Source: an uncultured Eubacteriales bacterium (GTDB taxonomy: Bacteria; Bacillota; Clostridia; TANB77; UBA1234). Taken from it: a stretch of 24,000 nt of DNA. Shown here one piece after another: positions 13,802-21,851 of the stretch (positions are counted from its first letter, which is position 1; each line of letters begins with the position of its first letter). The position numbers were made by a program, and so were the translations under genes. Under the pieces are notes generated by a model. The model did not search any database and had not been told where the DNA came from. It was given only the letters and a program-made list of their open reading frames with translations. The DNA is taken from NCBI GenBank assembly GCA_964400015.1, contig CAYNRR010000015.1:9184-33183 (forward strand), given 5' to 3'.

Positions 13802-14191
13802 TTGCAATATATAACAAATTTAGATAGAAAGAAGTTAGGCATATATGAGAGTAAGTTAATAACAGAAGAAGTGATTTTAACAGACGAAAGATTATACAAA
13901 CACATTCTTTTGTTTCACGAAGAAGAGTATAAACAATTAAAGCCATATATAAAAAGTATAATTGAAGAACCAGATTACATAGTTGAAGATAATAGAAACG
14001 AAGATACTATGATATACTTAAAAGAAATTAGTGATATTGGTAAAAATGGCAGAGTTGTTGTAAAATTGGCATTAGGAAAAGATAAAACACATAATAAAAA
14101 TTCGATTATTACATTGATGAAATTGAATAAAAGAACATGGAATCAAACTATAAAAAATAGAGGAAATATAATTTGGAAGACTAGAAACTAG
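13802..14191 (+). CDS. hypothetical 129-aa protein, possibly a PBECR-type (Barnase-EndoU-ColicinE5/D-RelE fold) nuclease-like domain
   Basis: TTG start 5 nt after AGAAGGTAG. The pattern LTDERLYKHILLFHEEEY...IKSIIEEPDYIVED...NEDTMIYLK...GRVVVKL....KNSIITLMK resembles, from memory, small phage or conjugative-element PBECR nuclease-fold proteins. This is not verified by an HMM. Confidence 0.45.
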   Translation: MQYITNLDRKKLGIYESKLITEEVILTDERLYKHILLFHEEEYKQLKPYIKSIIEEPDYIVEDNRNEDTMIYLKEISDIGKNGRVVVKLALGKDKTHNKNSIITLMKLNKRTWNQTIKNRGNIIWKTRN

Positions 14192-14223: not shown

Positions 14224-14358
14224 ACACTATGAGTAGGTTATTTGAAGTGGACAATAGTGCCATCCACACACCCTAGTGGTCAAAAGAGATGCAGGATTTG
14301 GCACACCTGCCAAATAACCAGTATGATAAAAGAGCTATGATAACATAGCTCTTTTATT
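14224..14358 (+). ncRNA. candidate structured small RNA (about 130 nt), class unknown
   Basis: It has its own promoter. There is a 9-bp long-range helix (14236-14244 with 14311-14319), an inner hairpin GTGGA/TCCAC (14247-14251 with 14263-14267) and an alternative perfect 8-bp hairpin ATTTGGCA-CACC-TGCCAAAT (14296-14315). Intrinsic terminator AGAGCTATG-ATAA-CATAGCTCT plus a T-run (14328-14358). No credible ORF. Confidence 0.45.
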
Positions 14359-14968: not shown

Positions 14969-16073
14969 ATGTTTGAACTTGAAGAATTACTTCAACAAAT
15001 AAAAATATTTGAAAACAAATTAAAAGAATTGAGTGAATCTCTTTGACATAAAATCAAAGGAACAAGCATTAAAAGATTTAGAAACACAAACGCAAGAAAC
15101 AGAATTTTGGAATGATAGCGAAAATTCTACAAAAGTTTTACAAAAAATAAAAACATTGAAAGATAAAATCGCAGGTTTTATTTCTTTAAATAATTTAATA
15201 AATGACACAAAAGGAATAATTGAACTTAGTCTTGAAGAAAAGGAAGAATCTATGATTCAAGAAGTGAAATCATCAGTTAAGCAAATAGAAAAGCAATTAG
15301 AAAAATTAGAAATTTCAAATTTGCTTTCGGGCAAACACGATGCAAGCAATGCAATTATTACAATTCATCCAGGAGCAGGAGGAACTGAATCACAAGATTG
15401 GGCTGAAATGTTATATAGAATGTATTCAATGTGGGCAGATAAAAATGGTTATAAATTGGAAGAATTAGATTACTTAGATGGAGATGTTGCAGGAATAAAA
15501 AGCGTTACATTTAGTATTATAGGAGATAATGCATACGGTTATTTAAAAGGCGAAAGTGGAGTACATAGACTAGTTAGAATTTCTCCGTTCGATTCTGCTG
15601 GAAGAAGACATACATCATTTGCATCAGTCGAAGTAATTCCAGAAGTATCAGATGATTTAGATATTCAAATAAATCCAGAAGATTTAAAAGTAGATACATA
15701 TCGTTCAAGTGGTGCAGGAGGACAACATGTAAACAAAACAGAATCGGCAATCAGAATAACACACATCCCAACAAACATAATAGTATCTTGTCAAACACAG
15801 CGTTCACAAATTCAAAATAGAGAAAAAGCAATGAAAATGTTAATCTCAAAGTTAATGGAATTAAAAGAACTCGAGAACAAAGAAAAAATAGAAGACTTAA
15901 AAGGAGTACAAAGAGAAATCGCATGGGGAAGTCAAATACGTTCATATGTATTTTGCCCATACACACTAGTAAAAGATCATCGCACAAATCATGAAACAGG
16001 AAACGTAGAAGCTGTAATGAACGGCGAACTAAACGACTTCATCGACGCCTTCTTACGCAGGGACGTCCGTTAA
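14969..16073 (+). CDS. prfB: peptide chain release factor 2, programmed +1 frameshift: join(14969..15043,15045..16073)
   Basis: A short frame, MFELEELLQQIKIFENKLKELSESL, ends at UCU CUU UGA C (CUU 15041-15043, UGA 15044-15046). The main frame continues DIKSKEQ... It carries the SPF motif (RISPFDSAGRRHTSF) and the GGQ motif (SSGAGGQHVNK). Confidence 0.95.
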
Positions 16074-16110
16074 ATGTCTCATTTTTGCTAAAATATGGAT
16101 ATTTTTACAA

Positions 16111-16150
16111 TAAGGCTTTATAGTTTAAATACTATATAGCCTTATTTTTT
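16111..16150 (+). terminator. rho-independent terminator of prfB
   Basis: TAAGGCTtTATAGT (16111-16124) pairs with ACTATAtAGCCTTA (16131-16144), followed by TTTTTT. Confidence 0.7.
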
Positions 16151-16214
16151 GCATTAAATACTAGATAAATGTGCAAATCTAAAGCAGTCGTTTTAAATTT
16201 TGAATTTATTTTTT

Positions 16215-16456
16215 CACAAAAAGAAAACGCATACAACAGATTATCAGTTGCACGCGCTCCCTAGTTTTTCGAGCAGTACATTAACTTGCTCCTTCCACAT
16301 TAAATTTCATACTCCTAACAACTCTCCATACACACCAAGCACTAAAGTCGCATCCTCAACGGAATCTTCTCCTCAGAGCATAGCGCTTATCACCTCAGTA
16401 TCCGTGCGGCCTCCCACATCGTTACTGGTAACAATCTATACTTCAAGTTAGAGTAT
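16215..16456 (-). ncRNA. candidate orphan non-coding RNA (about 240 nt), class unknown; G-rich, C-poor and GGA-dense
   Basis: A minus-strand promoter lies at 16463-16491. There is a minus-strand intrinsic terminator: a 10-bp hairpin (16256-16247 with 16237-16228) followed by UUUUCUUUUU (16227-16215). The segment is G+C-richer than its flanks, has no plausible ORF and has no downstream gene on that strand. Confidence 0.5.
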
Positions 16457-16462
16457 AAAATT

Positions 16463-16491
16463 ATATTATCACAGTTTACATAAAAAGTCAA
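16463..16491 (-). promoter_or_regulatory. sigma-A promoter for the candidate RNA
   Basis: On the - strand: TTGACT (16491-16486), a 17-nt spacer, then TGATAATAT (TAATAT at 16468-16463, TGn extended -10). Confidence 0.5.
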
Positions 16492-16574
16492 GTAAAAATA
16501 ATTTATTTTATATTTTACCATTTCGATTCAATATGGTATTCTATTATAGATGAATTTATTTTGGGGGTAATATT

Positions 16575-19500
16575 GTGAATAATAACGAAATAAATTGGGA
16601 AGAGGTTGTCGATTTTTTTGCAAAAAAATATGTTTCAATTAAGGCAGCTCTTGCCGGTAGTAATATAGATGTTCAAGGAGATAATGTTTGTGTTAATTTG
16701 AAGTCTAAAAGCAAATTTATGCTTGAACAACGAAATTCTAATAAGTTAATTGAAGAATATATTAAAAATTCTTTTGGAAGAATTGTAAACGTTTCTTTTA
16801 AAGAGCAAGAAATTGTTGAAGATTCTTTAAGTAAGGAACAAGAAATTATTAGAAATTTAATGGAAAAGAATAAACAAGAACTTGCAGAAAGAGCCAAAGA
16901 AGCACCTAAAAAAGTGTCTCATTCATCAACGTCTAATCAATTACAAGGTACAAATTATCAATCAGCAAAAACGGTGCAAGGAAATTCAAGTGCACAGTCA
17001 TCAAATGTTCCGATGAGCTCGCTTGATTATGCTACATCTCAAGGTGGAACTAATTCAACTAATCAAGCCGATACTGCAAATGCTCCAAAAGATACTTTTA
17101 AAGGAAATAGCAAAAGAGGTATGCAATTTGTTAAAGATCCTGAAAAACTTCTTTTTAAAGGATGGAAAGTTCCTTCAAATCCGAGAGAAACAAAGATTGC
17201 AAATCTTTCGCCAGAACAAAATGAAATTATTTTAAACGGTAAAATTAGTAATTATGATAGTAGAGAAACAAAGAATGGTGGCTTTCTAATATCTTTTGAT
17301 ATGTATGATGGTACTAGTTCTATAAATATAAAGTCATTTTTGAAAGCAAATGAGTATGGTGAAGTACATCCAAAGATGAAAGGGCTTGCAGCAGCAAGAA
17401 TTGTGGGTACATATGAATATAATGCATTTTCAAAGGAGTTTGGAGTAATTGCGAGTATCATAGAGGAAAGTGAATATGAAGAAAAGAAAAGAATGGATAA
17501 TTCAGAAGAAAAACGTGTTGAACTTCATCTGCATACTCAAATGAGCCAAATGGATGCAATTTCATCTGCTACTGATTTGATAAAAACGGCTATAAAATGG
17601 GGACATAAAGCTGTTGCAATAACAGATCATGGTGTCGCTCAAAGTTATCCTGAAGCGAAGAAAGCTGCGAAAGATTCTGATATAAAAGTTATTTACGGTG
17701 TAGAAGCTTATTTGTGTCCAGATAATGTTACTTCGGTTTATGACGCGAAAAGCACGGAGCCTTTGGACGATTTAACATATTGCATTTTGGATATTGAAAC
17801 AACAGGTCTTTCAAGGCAAACAGAAAAAATCACGGAATTTGGAATTATGAAAATGAAAAATGGTGAAATTATAGATACATTTGAATGTTTTGTAAATCCA
17901 GAAAAACCAATACCACAAAAGGTTGTCGAAGTTACTCATATTACAGACGATATGGTTAAAGATGCCGAAACGATAGACAAGGTTATGCCAAAAGTAATTG
18001 AATTTGTTGGGGATAGTATAGTTGTTGCACACAATGCAAACTTTGATGTTGGATTTATAAGATATAATGCTGAATTGCTTGGTTTAAAATTTGATAATTC
18101 TTTCATAGATACAGTTGCACTGGCAAAGGAACTTTTCCCTGATATGAAAAAATACAAGCTTGGATACATCGCTGAGCATTTAAATATAAAGGTTGATGTC
18201 GCACACAGAGCATTAGCAGATGTTGAAACTTTAGTTGCTGTATTTAAAGTTATGCTTGATCATATTCGTGAAAAAGAAATTACTACTTTGAATGACATTG
18301 ATGTAAAGCTAGCTCAAGATGTTAATTTTAAAACATTGCCAACATATCATGCAGTAATACTTGCATCTAACAAGGTGGGACTAAAAAATTTATATAAACT
18401 AATTTCGTATTCTCATGTTGATTATTTTTATAAAAAGCCAAGAATTTTAAAAAGTTTGCTAATGAAACATTCTGAAGGTTTGATTTTAGGAAGTGCTTGT
18501 GAGCAAGGAGAACTTTTTAGAGCTATAGTTGATGGTAAATCAGAAGAAGATCTAGAATCTATTGCAGATTTTTATGATTATTTAGAAATTCAACCTATTG
18601 GCAATAATATGTTTATGGTTCGCAATGGAACAGTTCCAGATGTAAAAACATTGGAAGACTTTAATAAAAAAATTGTTGAACTTGGTGAAAAATTAAATAA
18701 ACCTGTTGTTGCAACTTGCGATGTTCATTTCTTAAATCCAGAAGATGAAATTTATAGAAGAATTTTGCAAGCTGGTCAAGGTTATGATGATGCTGATGAA
18801 CAAGCACCATTATATTTTAGAACAACTGAAGAAATGCTTAAAGAGTTTACGTATTTGGGCGAAGAAAAAGCGTATGAAGTTGTTGTAACAAATACAAACA
18901 AAATAGCAGATATGTGCGAAAAAATAAATCCAATTGCAGATTATAAAGCAACGCCACACATTGATGGTTGTGAAGAAACAATTAGAAATATAACGATGAA
19001 ACGTGCTATCGAATTATATGGTGATCCGTTGCCTGAAATTGTTCAAGCTCGTATAGATAAGGAACTTGAATCAATTATAAAAAATGGATTCTCTGTTATG
19101 TACATTATCGCACAAAAACTAGTTAATAAATCAAATGAAGATGGTTATTTGGTTGGTTCGAGAGGATCTGTTGGTTCATCATTTGTTGCTAACATGACGG
19201 GTATTACAGAAGTTAATTCACTTCAACCACATTACAGATGTCCAAACTGCAAATATTCGGATTTTACAGATTATAATATAAAAAATGGGTTTGACCTTCC
19301 AGACAAAGAATGTCCTAAATGTGGAACTATGCTAGAAAAAGATGGTATGGATATTCCATTTGAAACATTCTTAGGTTTCGATGGGGATAAAGAACCCGAC
19401 ATAGACTTAAACTTTTCTGGTGAATATCAAGCCAAAGCACATAAATACACAGAAGTAATATTCGGTAAAGGCACAACTTTCAAAGCTGGAACAATTGGTA

Positions 19501-20825
19501 CAATTGCCGATAAAACAGCATTTGGATATGTAAAAAAATATTACGAAGAAAGACATATACCGATAAACAATGCAGAAATTTCAAGAATTGCGATAGGATG
19601 TACAGGAGTAAAAAGAACAAGTGGGCAACATCCAGGTGGAATTATAGTAGTGCCAACAGGTAATGAAATATATGAATTCTGTCCAGTACAACATCCAGCA
19701 GATGATGCAGAATCAAATATTATCACAACACATTTTGATTATCACTCAATAGATCAAAACCTTTTAAAACTAGATATATTAGGGCATGATGATCCGACAA
19801 TGATAAGAATGTTACAAGATTTAACTGACGTGGATCCACAAAAAATTCCACTAGATGATAAAGAAACTATGTCAATCTTTTCATCAACAAAGGCATTAGG
19901 TGTTACACCAGATCAGATCCATTCAGAAGTTGGTACATTTGGTGTCCCAGAGTTTGGAACAAAGTTTGTTCGTGGAATGTTAGTAGACACAAAGCCAACA
20001 AAATTTGAAGAGTTGCTAAGAATTTCAGGATTATCACATGGTACAGACGTTTGGCTAAACAACGCGCAAACGCTTATTCAAGAAGGCACAATTACACTGG
20101 AAGACGCAATATGTACCAGAGATGACATAATGATATATTTGATAAAGCAAGGATTGCCACCAAAACCTTCATTTAAAATAATGGAGAGTGTTCGTAAAGG
20201 AAGAGGATTATCAGAAGAACAAGAAGCGTTGATGCGTGAAAACAATGTTCCAGAATGGTATATATCTTCATGTAAAAAAATAAAATATATGTTCCCAAAA
20301 GCGCATGCTGCAGCATATGTAACCATGGCATTTAGAATTGCGTGGTTTAAAGTTCATATACCTATAGCATATTATGCAGCCTTTTTCTCAATAAGAGCAG
20401 ATGAATTTGAAAGCGATTCAATGATTTATGGAAAAGAAAAAGTAATAAACAAGATGAGAGAAATAGATTTGCAAGGAAACAACGCTTCTCCTAAAGACAA
20501 AAATATGTACTCAGTATTGGAAATAGTGTTAGAAATGTATGAAAGAGGAATCGAATTTTTACCAATAGATTTATATAAATCCGATGCAAAAAAATTCTTA
20601 ATAGAAGATGGAAAAATTCGTCCACCACTAAATAGTATTGCCGGACTTGGAACGGTTGCAGCAGAAAATATACAACAAGCTAGAAACACAGGAGGACAAT
20701 TTATGTCTATCGAAGAATTAAAATTAAGATCAGGAGTTGGCAAATCAGTAATAGAATTACTAAAAAACGCTAACTGTCTAAAAGGAATGACAGAAAGTAA
20801 TCAAATGAGTTTATTTACATATTAA
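16575..20825 (+). CDS. polC: DNA polymerase III PolC-type (Gram-positive replicative polymerase with intrinsic 3'-5' exonuclease)
   Basis: 1416 aa. GTG start after GGGGGT. It has a PHP region (VELHLHTQMS), a DEDD exonuclease insert (ILDIETTGL ... VAHNANFDVGF ... HRALADV), a CPNC...CPKC zinc module and a polymerase core (GSRGSVGSS, DIDLNF). Confidence 0.97.
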   Translation: MNNNEINWEEVVDFFAKKYVSIKAALAGSNIDVQGDNVCVNLKSKSKFMLEQRNSNKLIEEYIKNSFGRIVNVSFKEQEIVEDSLSKEQEIIRNLMEKNKQELAERAKEAPKKVSHSSTSNQLQGTNYQSAKTVQGNSSAQSSNVPMSSLDYATSQGGTNSTNQADTANAPKDTFKGNSKRGMQFVKDPEKLLFKGWKVPSNPRETKIANLSPEQNEIILNGKISNYDSRETKNGGFLISFDMYDGTSSINIKSFLKANEYGEVHPKMKGLAAARIVGTYEYNAFSKEFGVIASIIEESEYEEKKRMDNSEEKRVELHLHTQMSQMDAISSATDLIKTAIKWGHKAVAITDHGVAQSYPEAKKAAKDSDIKVIYGVEAYLCPDNVTSVYDAKSTEPLDDLTYCILDIETTGLSRQTEKITEFGIMKMKNGEIIDTFECFVNPEKPIPQKVVEVTHITDDMVKDAETIDKVMPKVIEFVGDSIVVAHNANFDVGFIRYNAELLGLKFDNSFIDTVALAKELFPDMKKYKLGYIAEHLNIKVDVAHRALADVETLVAVFKVMLDHIREKEITTLNDIDVKLAQDVNFKTLPTYHAVILASNKVGLKNLYKLISYSHVDYFYKKPRILKSLLMKHSEGLILGSACEQGELFRAIVDGKSEEDLESIADFYDYLEIQPIGNNMFMVRNGTVPDVKTLEDFNKKIVELGEKLNKPVVATCDVHFLNPEDEIYRRILQAGQGYDDADEQAPLYFRTTEEMLKEFTYLGEEKAYEVVVTNTNKIADMCEKINPIADYKATPHIDGCEETIRNITMKRAIELYGDPLPEIVQARIDKELESIIKNGFSVMYIIAQKLVNKSNEDGYLVGSRGSVGSSFVANMTGITEVNSLQPHYRCPNCKYSDFTDYNIKNGFDLPDKECPKCGTMLEKDGMDIPFETFLGFDGDKEPDIDLNFSGEYQAKAHKYTEVIFGKGTTFKAGTIGTIADKTAFGYVKKYYEERHIPINNAEISRIAIGCTGVKRTSGQHPGGIIVVPTGNEIYEFCPVQHPADDAESNIITTHFDYHSIDQNLLKLDILGHDDPTMIRMLQDLTDVDPQKIPLDDKETMSIFSSTKALGVTPDQIHSEVGTFGVPEFGTKFVRGMLVDTKPTKFEELLRISGLSHGTDVWLNNAQTLIQEGTITLEDAICTRDDIMIYLIKQGLPPKPSFKIMESVRKGRGLSEEQEALMRENNVPEWYISSCKKIKYMFPKAHAAAYVTMAFRIAWFKVHIPIAYYAAFFSIRADEFESDSMIYGKEKVINKMREIDLQGNNASPKDKNMYSVLEIVLEMYERGIEFLPIDLYKSDAKKFLIEDGKIRPPLNSIAGLGTVAAENIQQARNTGGQFMSIEELKLRSGVGKSVIELLKNANCLKGMTESNQMSLFTY

Positions 20826-20870: not shown

Positions 20871-20901
20871 AAATATGTAAGTGAGTTACGGAGGTGATAT
20901 C

Positions 20902-21288
20902 GTGATAGGAAATAGTTCGTTTTCAATTTTTGTCGATAATGTATTTGCTTTTATAGCAAAATTGTTTTCATCATTGCTTGAAAACGTAGTAAAAATAATT
21001 TTTTCTAATCATATAATAACAGTGCTTTTATTTTTTGTGTTTATAAACGCCATAGCTATTATATTGATGAAAAAAGATAAGGAGTATGCTCAAACTGGTG
21101 CAAAAAGAGTTCGCGAAAGCACATTACTTATAGTTGCATTAGTAGGTGGAGGATTAGGAGAATACTACGCGATGTACAAGTACAAGCACAAAACGTTGCA
21201 TAACAAATTTTTATATGGAGTACCAATTGCAATAATGCTTAATACGGCAATGATAACGTATTCAGTATCACTTGTACTATTTGCGTAA
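20902..21288 (+). CDS. DUF1294 family membrane protein
   Basis: ORF 20881..21288. I prefer the GTG at 20902, just after GGAGGTGA. It has the RVRESTLLIVALVGGGLGEYYAMYKYKHKTLHNKF pattern typical of DUF1294. Confidence 0.65.
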   Translation: MIGNSSFSIFVDNVFAFIAKLFSSLLENVVKIIFSNHIITVLLFFVFINAIAIILMKKDKEYAQTGAKRVRESTLLIVALVGGGLGEYYAMYKYKHKTLHNKFLYGVPIAIMLNTAMITYSVSLVLFA

Positions 21289-21314
21289 CTTATTACGATG
21301 AAGGAGGAATTAGT

Positions 21315-21851
21315 ATGAATATTAAAGTAGTAGGAAAAAATATTGAGATTACAGCAGCAATAAAAGAATATATTGAAAAAAGAGTTGAAAGACTTGAAAA
21401 ATTTGAAGGCGCTAATACTGAAATTACAGTAGTATGTAGTGTTGAAAGAGAAGAACAAATCGTTGAAATTCAAATCAATCAAAATGGCGATTTCATAAGA
21501 ATTGAAGAAAGAAACAATGACTTGTATGCATCAGTTGACTTAGCAATTGATAAAGCAGAAAGACAATTAAGAAAAGAAAAAGAAAAAAGAGTTGAAAAAA
21601 ATAGAGAAGCATCACTAAAAGAAAAAGTTTTAGGACTTTTCAAAAATGGTGGAGCAGACGACGAAAACAAAGGTAAAATAACAAAAACAAAAACTTTTGA
21701 TATTAAGCCATTAACAGTAGAAGATGCAAAATTAAAATTAGAAGACGAAAGAGACACACTATTCTTACCATTTGTAAACGTTGAAACAAATCAAGTAAAC
21801 GTTATTTATAAAAGAGATGATGGCTCATTAGGAATAGTTGTACCAGAATAA
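21315..21851 (+). CDS. hpf: ribosome hibernation promoting factor, long form (HPF/RaiA family)
   Basis: MNIKVVGKNIEIT.AIKEYIEKRV N-terminal S30AE domain, a charged linker and a C-terminal dimerisation domain (KTKTFDIKPLTVEDA...FLPFVNVETNQVNVIYKRDDGSLGIV). GAAGGAGGA upstream. Confidence 0.9.
   Translation: MNIKVVGKNIEITAAIKEYIEKRVERLEKFEGANTEITVVCSVEREEQIVEIQINQNGDFIRIEERNNDLYASVDLAIDKAERQLRKEKEKRVEKNREASLKEKVLGLFKNGGADDENKGKITKTKTFDIKPLTVEDAKLKLEDERDTLFLPFVNVETNQVNVIYKRDDGSLGIVVPE

Follow-up and report, generated by a model that had tools for sequence, protein, structure and literature searches.

A stand-alone structured RNA of uncultured Clostridia with a K-turn-like core and a mini-ORF abutting its terminal hairpin

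Large orphan RNAs supported by covariation are rare, and those found so far, raiA/ModT and OLE among them, pointed to unrecognised biology. In leader-peptide attenuators, such as the Escherichia coli ampC ribosome-binding attenuator and the erm and cat leaders, a short open reading frame (ORF) led by a Shine-Dalgarno (SD) sequence lets the ribosome disturb a terminator hairpin; to our knowledge, such attenuators always control a co-directional downstream gene and carry regulatory codons or arrest peptides. Here we describe an element on the minus strand between prfB and polC in a 24,000-nt stretch of DNA from an uncultured Eubacteriales bacterium (the whole stretch is hereafter called the window). 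It is an uncatalogued new RNA family, absent from Rfam 15 and without a description in limited full-text literature searches, in which known modules are combined in an uncommon, orphan layout. Three further systems are compared with it below: raiA, which comprises P1-P8 and two pseudoknots and typically has no terminator or SD-occlusion platform (PMC10861870); mccA, in which ribosome binding to a 7-codon ORF governs the adjacent intrinsic terminator and makes the short RNA very stable and abundant (PMC4231749); and RNAs built on a kink-turn (K-turn), whose definition calls for a canonical C helix 5' of a 3-nt bulge and, 3' of the bulge, a G.A pair and then an A.G pair (PMC4316175).

The RNA gene, its relatives and its fold

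The element lies in the 500-nt gap between prfB (15033-16073, plus strand, with PCRF and RF-1 domains) and polC (16575-20825, plus strand, with a GTG start behind GGGGG). An earlier note on this DNA, written from the letters alone, had named both neighbours, which Pfam confirmed, and had proposed a stand-alone minus-strand RNA gene; the promoter, the G-rich segment of higher G+C, the hairpin with its tail and the nine GGA triplets that it listed are all present where it had placed them. The predicted sigma-A-type promoter (16463..16491, minus strand) is near-consensus and consists of TTGACT (16491-16486), a 17-nt spacer and an extended -10, TG-n-TAATAT (16471-16463). A promoter scan of the region returned five candidates with 5.0 expected, which is not above chance. 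The layout of a -35, 17 nt and TGnTAnnAT is kept in 12/12 homologs, with TTGAC(T/A) as the -35 and an invariant spacer, TTTTATGTnAA. The predicted transcript of about 245 nt spans 16215..16462 on the minus strand, its 5' end being placed a few nucleotides past the -10 and its 3' end in the U-tract 16227-16218, and homologs found by nhmmer and by a covariance model (CM) align across exactly this span. G+C is 0.37-0.48 over ~16215-16450 and 0.18-0.28 in the flanks, and since the GC skew of the plus strand is strongly negative, the minus strand is G-rich.

Relatives were sought by a prfB-based scan of GTDB species genomes, whose nearest members were metagenome-assembled genomes (MAGs) of uncultured Clostridia, one of which (L002) carries a homolog in the same place; further loci came from contigs reached via PolC relatives at 73-88% identity and from one DNA-pattern scan of JGI metagenomes. 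This yielded 12 copies of the element (9 distinct sequences from ~7 lineages) in MAGs of related Clostridia. Seeded with the window and L081 only, the CM recovered all 12 homologs (E 4e-9 to 2e-53) and matched nothing in 25 other Clostridia prfB/polC loci, and nhmmer also recovered homologs. The element does not stand beside polC in three PolC lineages at 72-74% identity (L085/L086, L094, L095). As far as could be seen, the family appears restricted to a single clade of uncultured Clostridia from gut and rumen. A phage origin was rejected, the DNA pattern of the element having no match among viral contigs.

No co-directional gene follows the element at any of the 13 loci. The next gene is always convergent and varies in identity (most lineages have prfB; L083 and L092 have divIC; L088, L089, L090 and L093 have a DUF951 gene), so that the element is always tail-to-tail with a gene on one side and usually head-to-head with polC on the other. 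Because there is never a downstream gene, the element is stand-alone and not a leader; at none of these loci does it occupy the 5' untranslated region of a co-directional gene with a consistent association, as a riboswitch or 5' leader would. This agrees with the earlier note, which had argued against a riboswitch, T-box or leader role, and its proposal of a stand-alone RNA gene is borne out by the element's own promoter and its conservation in relatives. The element retains that promoter and its position while the neighbours change. In L093 and L089, insertions of insertion sequence (IS) type part the RNA from polC and leave the RNA gene and its promoter undisturbed; the helix-turn-helix/IS-type transposase genes lie just upstream of the RNA promoter (L093 2782-3756, minus strand; L089 627-2034, plus strand).

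Aligning the prfB-polC region of relatives and testing it for covariation, which the earlier note had suggested, revealed a conserved and covarying RNA. The minus strand of the window folds with -83.5 kcal/mol (z = -5.45), compared to only z = -2.5 for the plus strand; across sequences the z-scores of the RNA strand range from -2.2 to -5.4, and in 10/10 sequences the absolute fold energy of this strand lies 11-43 kcal/mol below that of the opposite one. The 5' domain of ~155 nt is modelled as a three-way junction of P1, P2 and P3, in which P1, a long and interrupted helix, joins the 5' end to position ~154 and closes the junction. By RNAfold and constrained folds, the 5' strand of P1 (AUACUCU and AACUU, 16445..16456) pairs with 16324-16309, and the 3' strand (16309..16324), for which the CM alignment also speaks, reads GAGUU, a GUUA bulge and GGAGUAU. 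P2 (16393..16429) has an outer stem CCAGUA/UACUGG, a conserved internal loop CGAUG...CACGGAUA and a variable capping hairpin. P3 (16337..16388), drawn from covariation, comprises an outer stem AAGCGC/GUGCUU and an inner stem, P3b, which enclose the K-turn hairpin; all of these features are on the minus strand. A structure-blind alignment (MAFFT with RNAalifold) contained compensatory changes at 11/25 pairs, supporting P2, where they are already visible, and the terminator. For the divergent clades, MAFFT alone failed on P1 and P3, and the CM seeded with two sequences was used instead. In the CM alignment, 93.3% of 386 cells pair and 26/38 pairs change on both sides, a level of pairing and covariation reached by 0/500 shuffles, and sliding the 3' partners by 1-3 columns lowers pairing to 33-49%. 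Double-sided changes were found at 7/7 pairs of upper P1 and at 7/14 pairs of P2 (96.7% of cells paired). The strands of the P3 outer stem also covary (AAGCUC/GAGCUU, AAGUUUA/UAAACUU), as do those of P3b (GUGCC/GGUAC, GUACU/GGUGC, CGCC/GGCG, GAAAU/AUUUC). With the K-turn as the only constraint, all single-sequence folds (11/11) converged on a single architecture, in which P1/P1a meets P2 and P3 at a three-way junction.

The most conserved block of the family is the K-turn-like core 5'-GA-GGA-GAAGAU-UCC-GUU-GA-3' (16356..16374, minus strand). Its family-wide form, 5'-(G/U)A-GGA-GA(A/U)(G/A)AU-UCC-G(U/A/G)U-GA-3', is almost invariant in 13/13 sequences and is flanked by the covarying P3b. The block fits the sequence rules of a K-turn, with UCC-G(U/A/G)U-GA-[P3b] opposite [P3b]-(G/U)A-GGA in 13/13 sequences: GGA/UCC would form the C helix, GUU (GNU in the family) the bulge and the GA dinucleotides the tandem G.A/A.G pairs, while P3b, which continues as a covarying helix, would be the NC helix. 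A C-G pair occupies -1b/-1n. Position 2n is G or U, an alternation that matches standard and Kt-23-type K-turns, U being the residue seen most often at 2n in Kt-23, an accepted K-turn (PMC4316175). Two further candidates involving this block found no support. A pseudoknot between the K-turn loop GAAGAU and an AUCUUC 5' of P2 fits L002, L091, L092 and L083, has no covarying column and fails in the window, L081, L082, L084, L088 and L089; an ORF from an NUG inside the K-turn was rejected, being by eye conserved in neither length nor frame.

Some observations concern the RNA promoter itself. Its spacer is near-invariant over all lineages, TTGAC(T/A)(T/A)TTTATGTnAA, and several promoter copies among those examined (window, L081, L002, L083) hold an inverted repeat, TTGAC(A)-N5-7-(T)GTCAA. 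Because ordinary sigma-A spacers are not conserved to such a degree, the repeat suggests an operator or a back-to-back -35 element.

The 3' module

Past an A/U-rich linker, every copy carries an SD-AUG mini-ORF module that the earlier note had missed. In the window, the SD AAGGAG (16289..16294, minus strand) stands 7 nt upstream of the AUG, and AGGAG or GGAGG lies 4-7 nt from the AUG in 10/10 distinct sequences. The predicted mini-ORF AUG UAC UGC UCG AAA AAC UAG (MYCSKN*; 16261..16281, minus strand) belongs to a series of 5-6 codons, that is, AUG and four or five more sense codons, whose peptides vary between lineages (MYYSSM, MSCSN, MYHSV, MYYSL, MEVVM, MEASEM/MKASEM and MYCATM in the homologs). 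In 10/10 distinct sequences, no more than 4 nt (0-4 nt) separate its stop codon from the GC-rich core of the terminal hairpin that follows. The 3' hairpin and putative intrinsic terminator (16218..16262, minus strand) have a 5' arm that begins at the stop codon, a core CGCGUGCAAC/GUUGUAUGCG (16256-16247/16237-16228) and a tail, UUUUCUUUUU, with the U-tract at 16227-16218. RNAfold lengthens this hairpin to 16 pairs; a simple terminator scan had missed it because the loop is 9 nt. The stem covaries in the structure-blind alignment.

In shuffled 3' regions, the chance of an SD with an AUG was 0.005-0.13 per lineage, and that of an SD, an AUG and a stop no more than 4 nt from the hairpin was 0.0003-0.009 per lineage; since the layout is kept in ~7 lineages at such low probabilities, it is not a product of chance. 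In the predictions the AUG is mostly free of pairing, whereas the SD often pairs in part with codons 3-5, which offers an RNA-level explanation for a recurrent UCN codon. The stop (16261-16263 in the window, minus strand) is UAG in 4/7 lineages compared to 13% of long ORFs in the same loci, a suggestive bias (P about 0.008, the lineages being related and not independent). UAG is read by RF1 only, and the element often adjoins prfB, which encodes RF2. In the clade of L088, L093 and L090, the hairpin behind the stop lacks a U-tract and is succeeded by a second terminator of classical type, so the hairpin seems to be kept for more than termination.

Set beside described mini-ORF systems, the module shares some of their marks. 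As in an attenuator, a short SD-preceded ORF abuts the terminator in 10 distinct sequences; the peptides vary, no conserved antiterminator was seen and no gene follows. Features of an expression platform, namely a terminator and partial pairing of the SD, are present and would act on the mini-ORF only, and the junction nucleotides are moderately conserved. An mccA-type gene would have seven codons, a terminal Asn and an adjacent mccB; here a terminal Asn occurs in two lineages only (the window clade and L082), and the neighbours are prfB, polC, DUF1294 and hpf.

Function and rival explanations

We favour, with a probability of roughly 0.45, a stand-alone structured RNA of ~245 nt whose K-turn domain binds a partner while ribosome loading on the mini-ORF controls its 3' end or lifetime. 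The 5' three-way-junction domain would be the working part; because the K-turn is near-invariant and the junctions only moderately conserved, a protein partner, for example an L7Ae-type K-turn binder, or a tertiary scaffold appears likelier than a metabolite pocket. A ribosome would load on the SD and AUG of the mini-ORF. Ribosomes with a stop codon in the A site cover roughly a dozen nucleotides downstream, and here that stretch falls on the 5' arm of the hairpin, so that occupancy by a ribosome would have to interact with formation of the hairpin. Ribosome loading may in this way set 3' end formation, RNA lifetime or both, as it does for mccA (PMC4231749), and the outcome would be a level of the K-turn domain coupled to translation capacity.

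Several points weigh against this proposal. Promoter, both ends of the transcript and translation are predicted, and the SD is partly sequestered in the predicted folds (probability unpaired 0.2-0.7), so that the ORF may be poorly translated. The junction nucleotides differ between the two main clades, which weakens a small-molecule aptamer yet lends no positive support to a protein partner; a search for a partner covarying with the K-turn loop gave none, and no L7Ae-family gene lies within the 24-kb window. The analogy with mccA is functional only, with no consistent terminal Asn and no mccB nearby, and a ribosome-controlled terminator normally serves a downstream gene, of which there is none here. 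Only ~7 independent lineages were available, and the CM alignment leans toward its model; since the blind alignment and the independent folds agree with it, however, we take the covariation signal to be real.

A more specific version of the proposal, which we consider rather unlikely as a whole, is a new class of autonomous, ribosome-gated regulatory RNA, in which no target gene but a ribosome (and possibly RF1, given the UAG bias) sets the availability of a factor-binding K-turn junction domain by engaging a decoy mini-ORF laid over the 3' hairpin of the same RNA, making the RNA a sensor of translation capacity with a trans-acting output. If ribosome gating holds, abundant yet uncultured Clostridia of gut and rumen would possess in this element a stand-alone read-out of their translational state; if it does not, the family is still a well-defined new entry for RNA databases.

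In descending order of confidence, the rivals are an orphan attenuator, a micro-peptide mRNA, a base-pairing small RNA (sRNA), a Csr-type sponge and an undetected known family. The first of these, doubtful as it is, proposes an orphan attenuator or riboswitch whose 5' domain senses a ligand and gates the SD, a ribosome that translates the mini-ORF closely behind RNA polymerase blocking the terminator and read-through entering the convergent neighbour as antisense RNA or transcriptional interference. The architecture is leader-like, a structured domain, an SD, a mini-ORF and a terminator that starts at the stop codon; the frequent pairing of the SD with codons 3-5 and the AUG in a loop resemble an SD-sequestering platform, and the tail-to-tail arrangement with a gene is constant. 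That gene differs, however, between prfB, divIC and DUF951, leaving no conserved target, and both the window and the L088 clade have a second hairpin or terminator between the RNA and its neighbour. No antiterminator pairing was seen to be conserved, and the only moderate conservation of junction sequences between clades also weighs against this reading.

Somewhat less probable is a tiny mRNA whose product is a peptide of 5-6 residues (~M-Y-[CYH]-S-x-x), with the 5' domain as its regulatory leader. Every copy does combine an SD and an AUG with a stop in frame, some codons vary in the third base and keep their amino acid (Tyr UAC/UAU, Cys UGC/UGU, Ser UCG/UCA/UCU), and mccA demonstrates that 7-codon genes can be real (PMC4231749). 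Yet the peptides diverge widely (MEVVM, MEASEM, MSCSN, MYCSKN) and shift between 5 and 6 codons in length, the recurrent UCN codon is explicable as anti-SD pairing at the RNA level, and no modifying or export genes lie near the element.

A base-pairing or otherwise trans-acting sRNA, in which the untranslated SD/AUG segment would be a seed or decoy, seems unlikelier again. It would account for an orphan gene with a strong predicted promoter and terminator and for an SD-like segment that is single-stranded or weakly paired, but a seed would need neither an AUG at SD spacing nor an in-frame stop at the hairpin in every lineage. Being rich in G and poor in C, the RNA cannot pair with the SD sequences of mRNAs, and no sRNA target could be proposed.

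We regard as very unlikely that the element is a CsrB/RsmY/RsmZ-like RNA titrating CsrA or another GGA-binding protein. The earlier note's picture of a stand-alone, non-leader, conserved RNA stands, but its step from GGA density to a CsrB/RsmY/RsmZ-type or SD-mimic sponge is not supported. The window copy is indeed enriched, with nine GGA compared to a mean of 4.5 in dinucleotide shuffles (P = 0.005; mononucleotide shuffles, P = 0.08), it contains one GAGGAUG, an ARGGAUG-type site, and the conserved SD AAGGAG could be a CsrA-type site; like CsrB, RsmY and RsmZ, the element would be a stand-alone RNA with a strong promoter and a terminator. The density is limited to the window's sub-clade: the window and its closest relatives have 8-9 GGA and other lineages 3-5, with no enrichment in seven lineages outside the sub-clade (shuffle P 0.24-0.81). 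The GAGGAUG, in which the note had seen the CsrA core, is found in the window only and is absent from all other lineages. Titrating RNAs carry multiple (at least 4-20) conserved GGA, mostly in the loops of short hairpins, whereas here there is no array of GGA-loop hairpins and just two GGA are conserved in all copies, one base-paired in the K-turn C-helix stem and one in the SD of the mini-ORF. No Rfam Csr/Rsm model matched at E <= 10 over 16000-16700, and no csrA or fliW (CsrA/FliW domain) was found among the ORFs of the window. The GGA counts and their conservation across homologs rule against a Csr/Rsm sponge as a family property, and the case is a cautionary one, in that GGA counts in one sequence are no evidence for a Csr-type sponge.

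Lower still we place a divergent member of a known family (6S, SRP, raiA/ModT, T-box, ribosomal-protein leader or rRNA mimic) that the Rfam models failed to detect. Low-GC uncultured lineages can escape covariance models, and housekeeping genes surround the element, hpf/raiA lying two genes past polC. The Rfam search that the earlier note had recommended nevertheless assigned no family to the element: cmscan against Rfam 15, whose families include 6S, SRP, tmRNA, RNase P, raiA, T-box, ribosomal leaders and Clostridiales-1, gave no match to it or to four homologs at the gathering threshold, and at E <= 10 there was nothing credible on 16215-16491 and no family that recurred among the window and four homologs (L083, L087, L088, L089). 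The three-way junction with its K-turn-like core is unlike 6S (a rod with a bubble) or raiA (PMC10861870). Mimicry of ribosomal RNA, or a decoy for a ribosomal protein, was rejected because the CM finds nothing in an E. coli rRNA operon, a weak test.

That the element is no RNA gene at all but a plus-strand coding ORF or a compositional accident can be dismissed, since the 83-codon TTG ORF that does exist there (16200-16451), which the earlier note had already taken for a likely composition artefact, has no Pfam match, falls apart into three frames in the nearest homolog and meets stop codons in the rest, and since conservation tracks RNA pairing, including G.U pairs workable on the minus strand only.

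Neighbouring elements and comparison with known systems

A polC promoter independent of the RNA gene appears to lie on the other side of the gap. An extended -10-like motif, TGGTATTCT, stands ~35 nt upstream of the GTG start of polC (window 16514-16546, plus strand), preceded by a small hairpin (16516-16538), and recurs at the same position in L002 and L081-L085, L085 being a locus without the RNA. Functional coupling of the RNA to the polC promoter was rejected, because polC keeps its own -10 in L085 and IS genes intervene in L093 and L089; the linkage to polC is more probably inherited synteny. Downstream, polC, DUF1294, hpf (a hibernation factor of S30AE/raiA type) and SASP are syntenic across the clade (window 20881-21851, plus strand; L081-L092).

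On the other side, prfB has a classical programmed +1 frameshift site, CTT TGA C (about 15041-15047, plus strand), which makes an ATG at ~14970 the real start and the GTG ORF 15033-16073 the second frame only. Between secA and prfB is inserted a pair consisting of a 129-aa ORF (13802-14191, plus strand) with PBECR2/PBECR3 nuclease domains (barnase-EndoU-ColicinE5/D-RelE-like) and, directly downstream, a skipping-rope RNA (14237-14318, plus strand), a class for which we know of no function. This is the sole gathering-level Rfam match in the window (RF02924, 65.4 bits, E 6.6e-14), is unrelated to the element, and its association with a PBECR nuclease gene may be informative on the RNA class. In relatives, long G+C-rich inverted repeats with arms up to ~45 bp sit directly past the RNA terminator or past prfB (L081 4400-4545; L001 7090-7250; L082 4545-4605); they are absent from the window and look like intergenic elements of REP/MITE type.

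Among the systems introduced at the outset, raiA/ModT (PMC10861870, PMC11706538) is, with mccA, one of the closest comparators. Like it, the element is an orphan, structured RNA of ~200 nt in Clostridia, independently transcribed (a prediction here), placed among housekeeping genes in a single copy per locus, and not cis-regulatory. Unlike it, the element has a three-way junction and K-turn followed by an SD, a mini-ORF and a terminator, shows no match to raiA in sequence or structure (no Rfam hit at E <= 10), and occurs in one narrow clade compared to more than 2,500 species. In other Clostridia, raiA-motif RNA often adjoins raiA/hpf; none was detected in the window.

The 3' module resembles those of mccA and the leader-peptide attenuators. 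In mccA as here, an SD-led mini-ORF of a few codons directly precedes an intrinsic terminator, but the peptide of mccA has 7 residues with Asn at its end and mccB-E come after the gene, whereas the element has 5-6 codons, variable peptides, no mccB and a large structured 5' domain ahead of the ORF. The attenuators likewise place a short SD-led ORF at a terminator hairpin, and differ in having the co-directional gene and the regulatory codons or arrest peptide that the element lacks.

The 5' domain resembles the K-turn riboswitches and leaders (SAM-I, T-box Stem I, c-di-GMP-II, cobalamin; PMC4316175), which are multi-helix junctions of Firmicutes with a standard K-turn bending one arm and, as here, a terminator or SD platform that then follows. 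The element stands apart from them in having no family match, no regulated downstream gene and junction nucleotides that are not invariant, and its K-turn-like motif adjoins a 3-bp stem capped by a conserved 6-nt loop. The element thus unites modules that are known singly, a junction domain with a K-turn and a mini-ORF that leads into a terminator, and has no obvious regulated gene.

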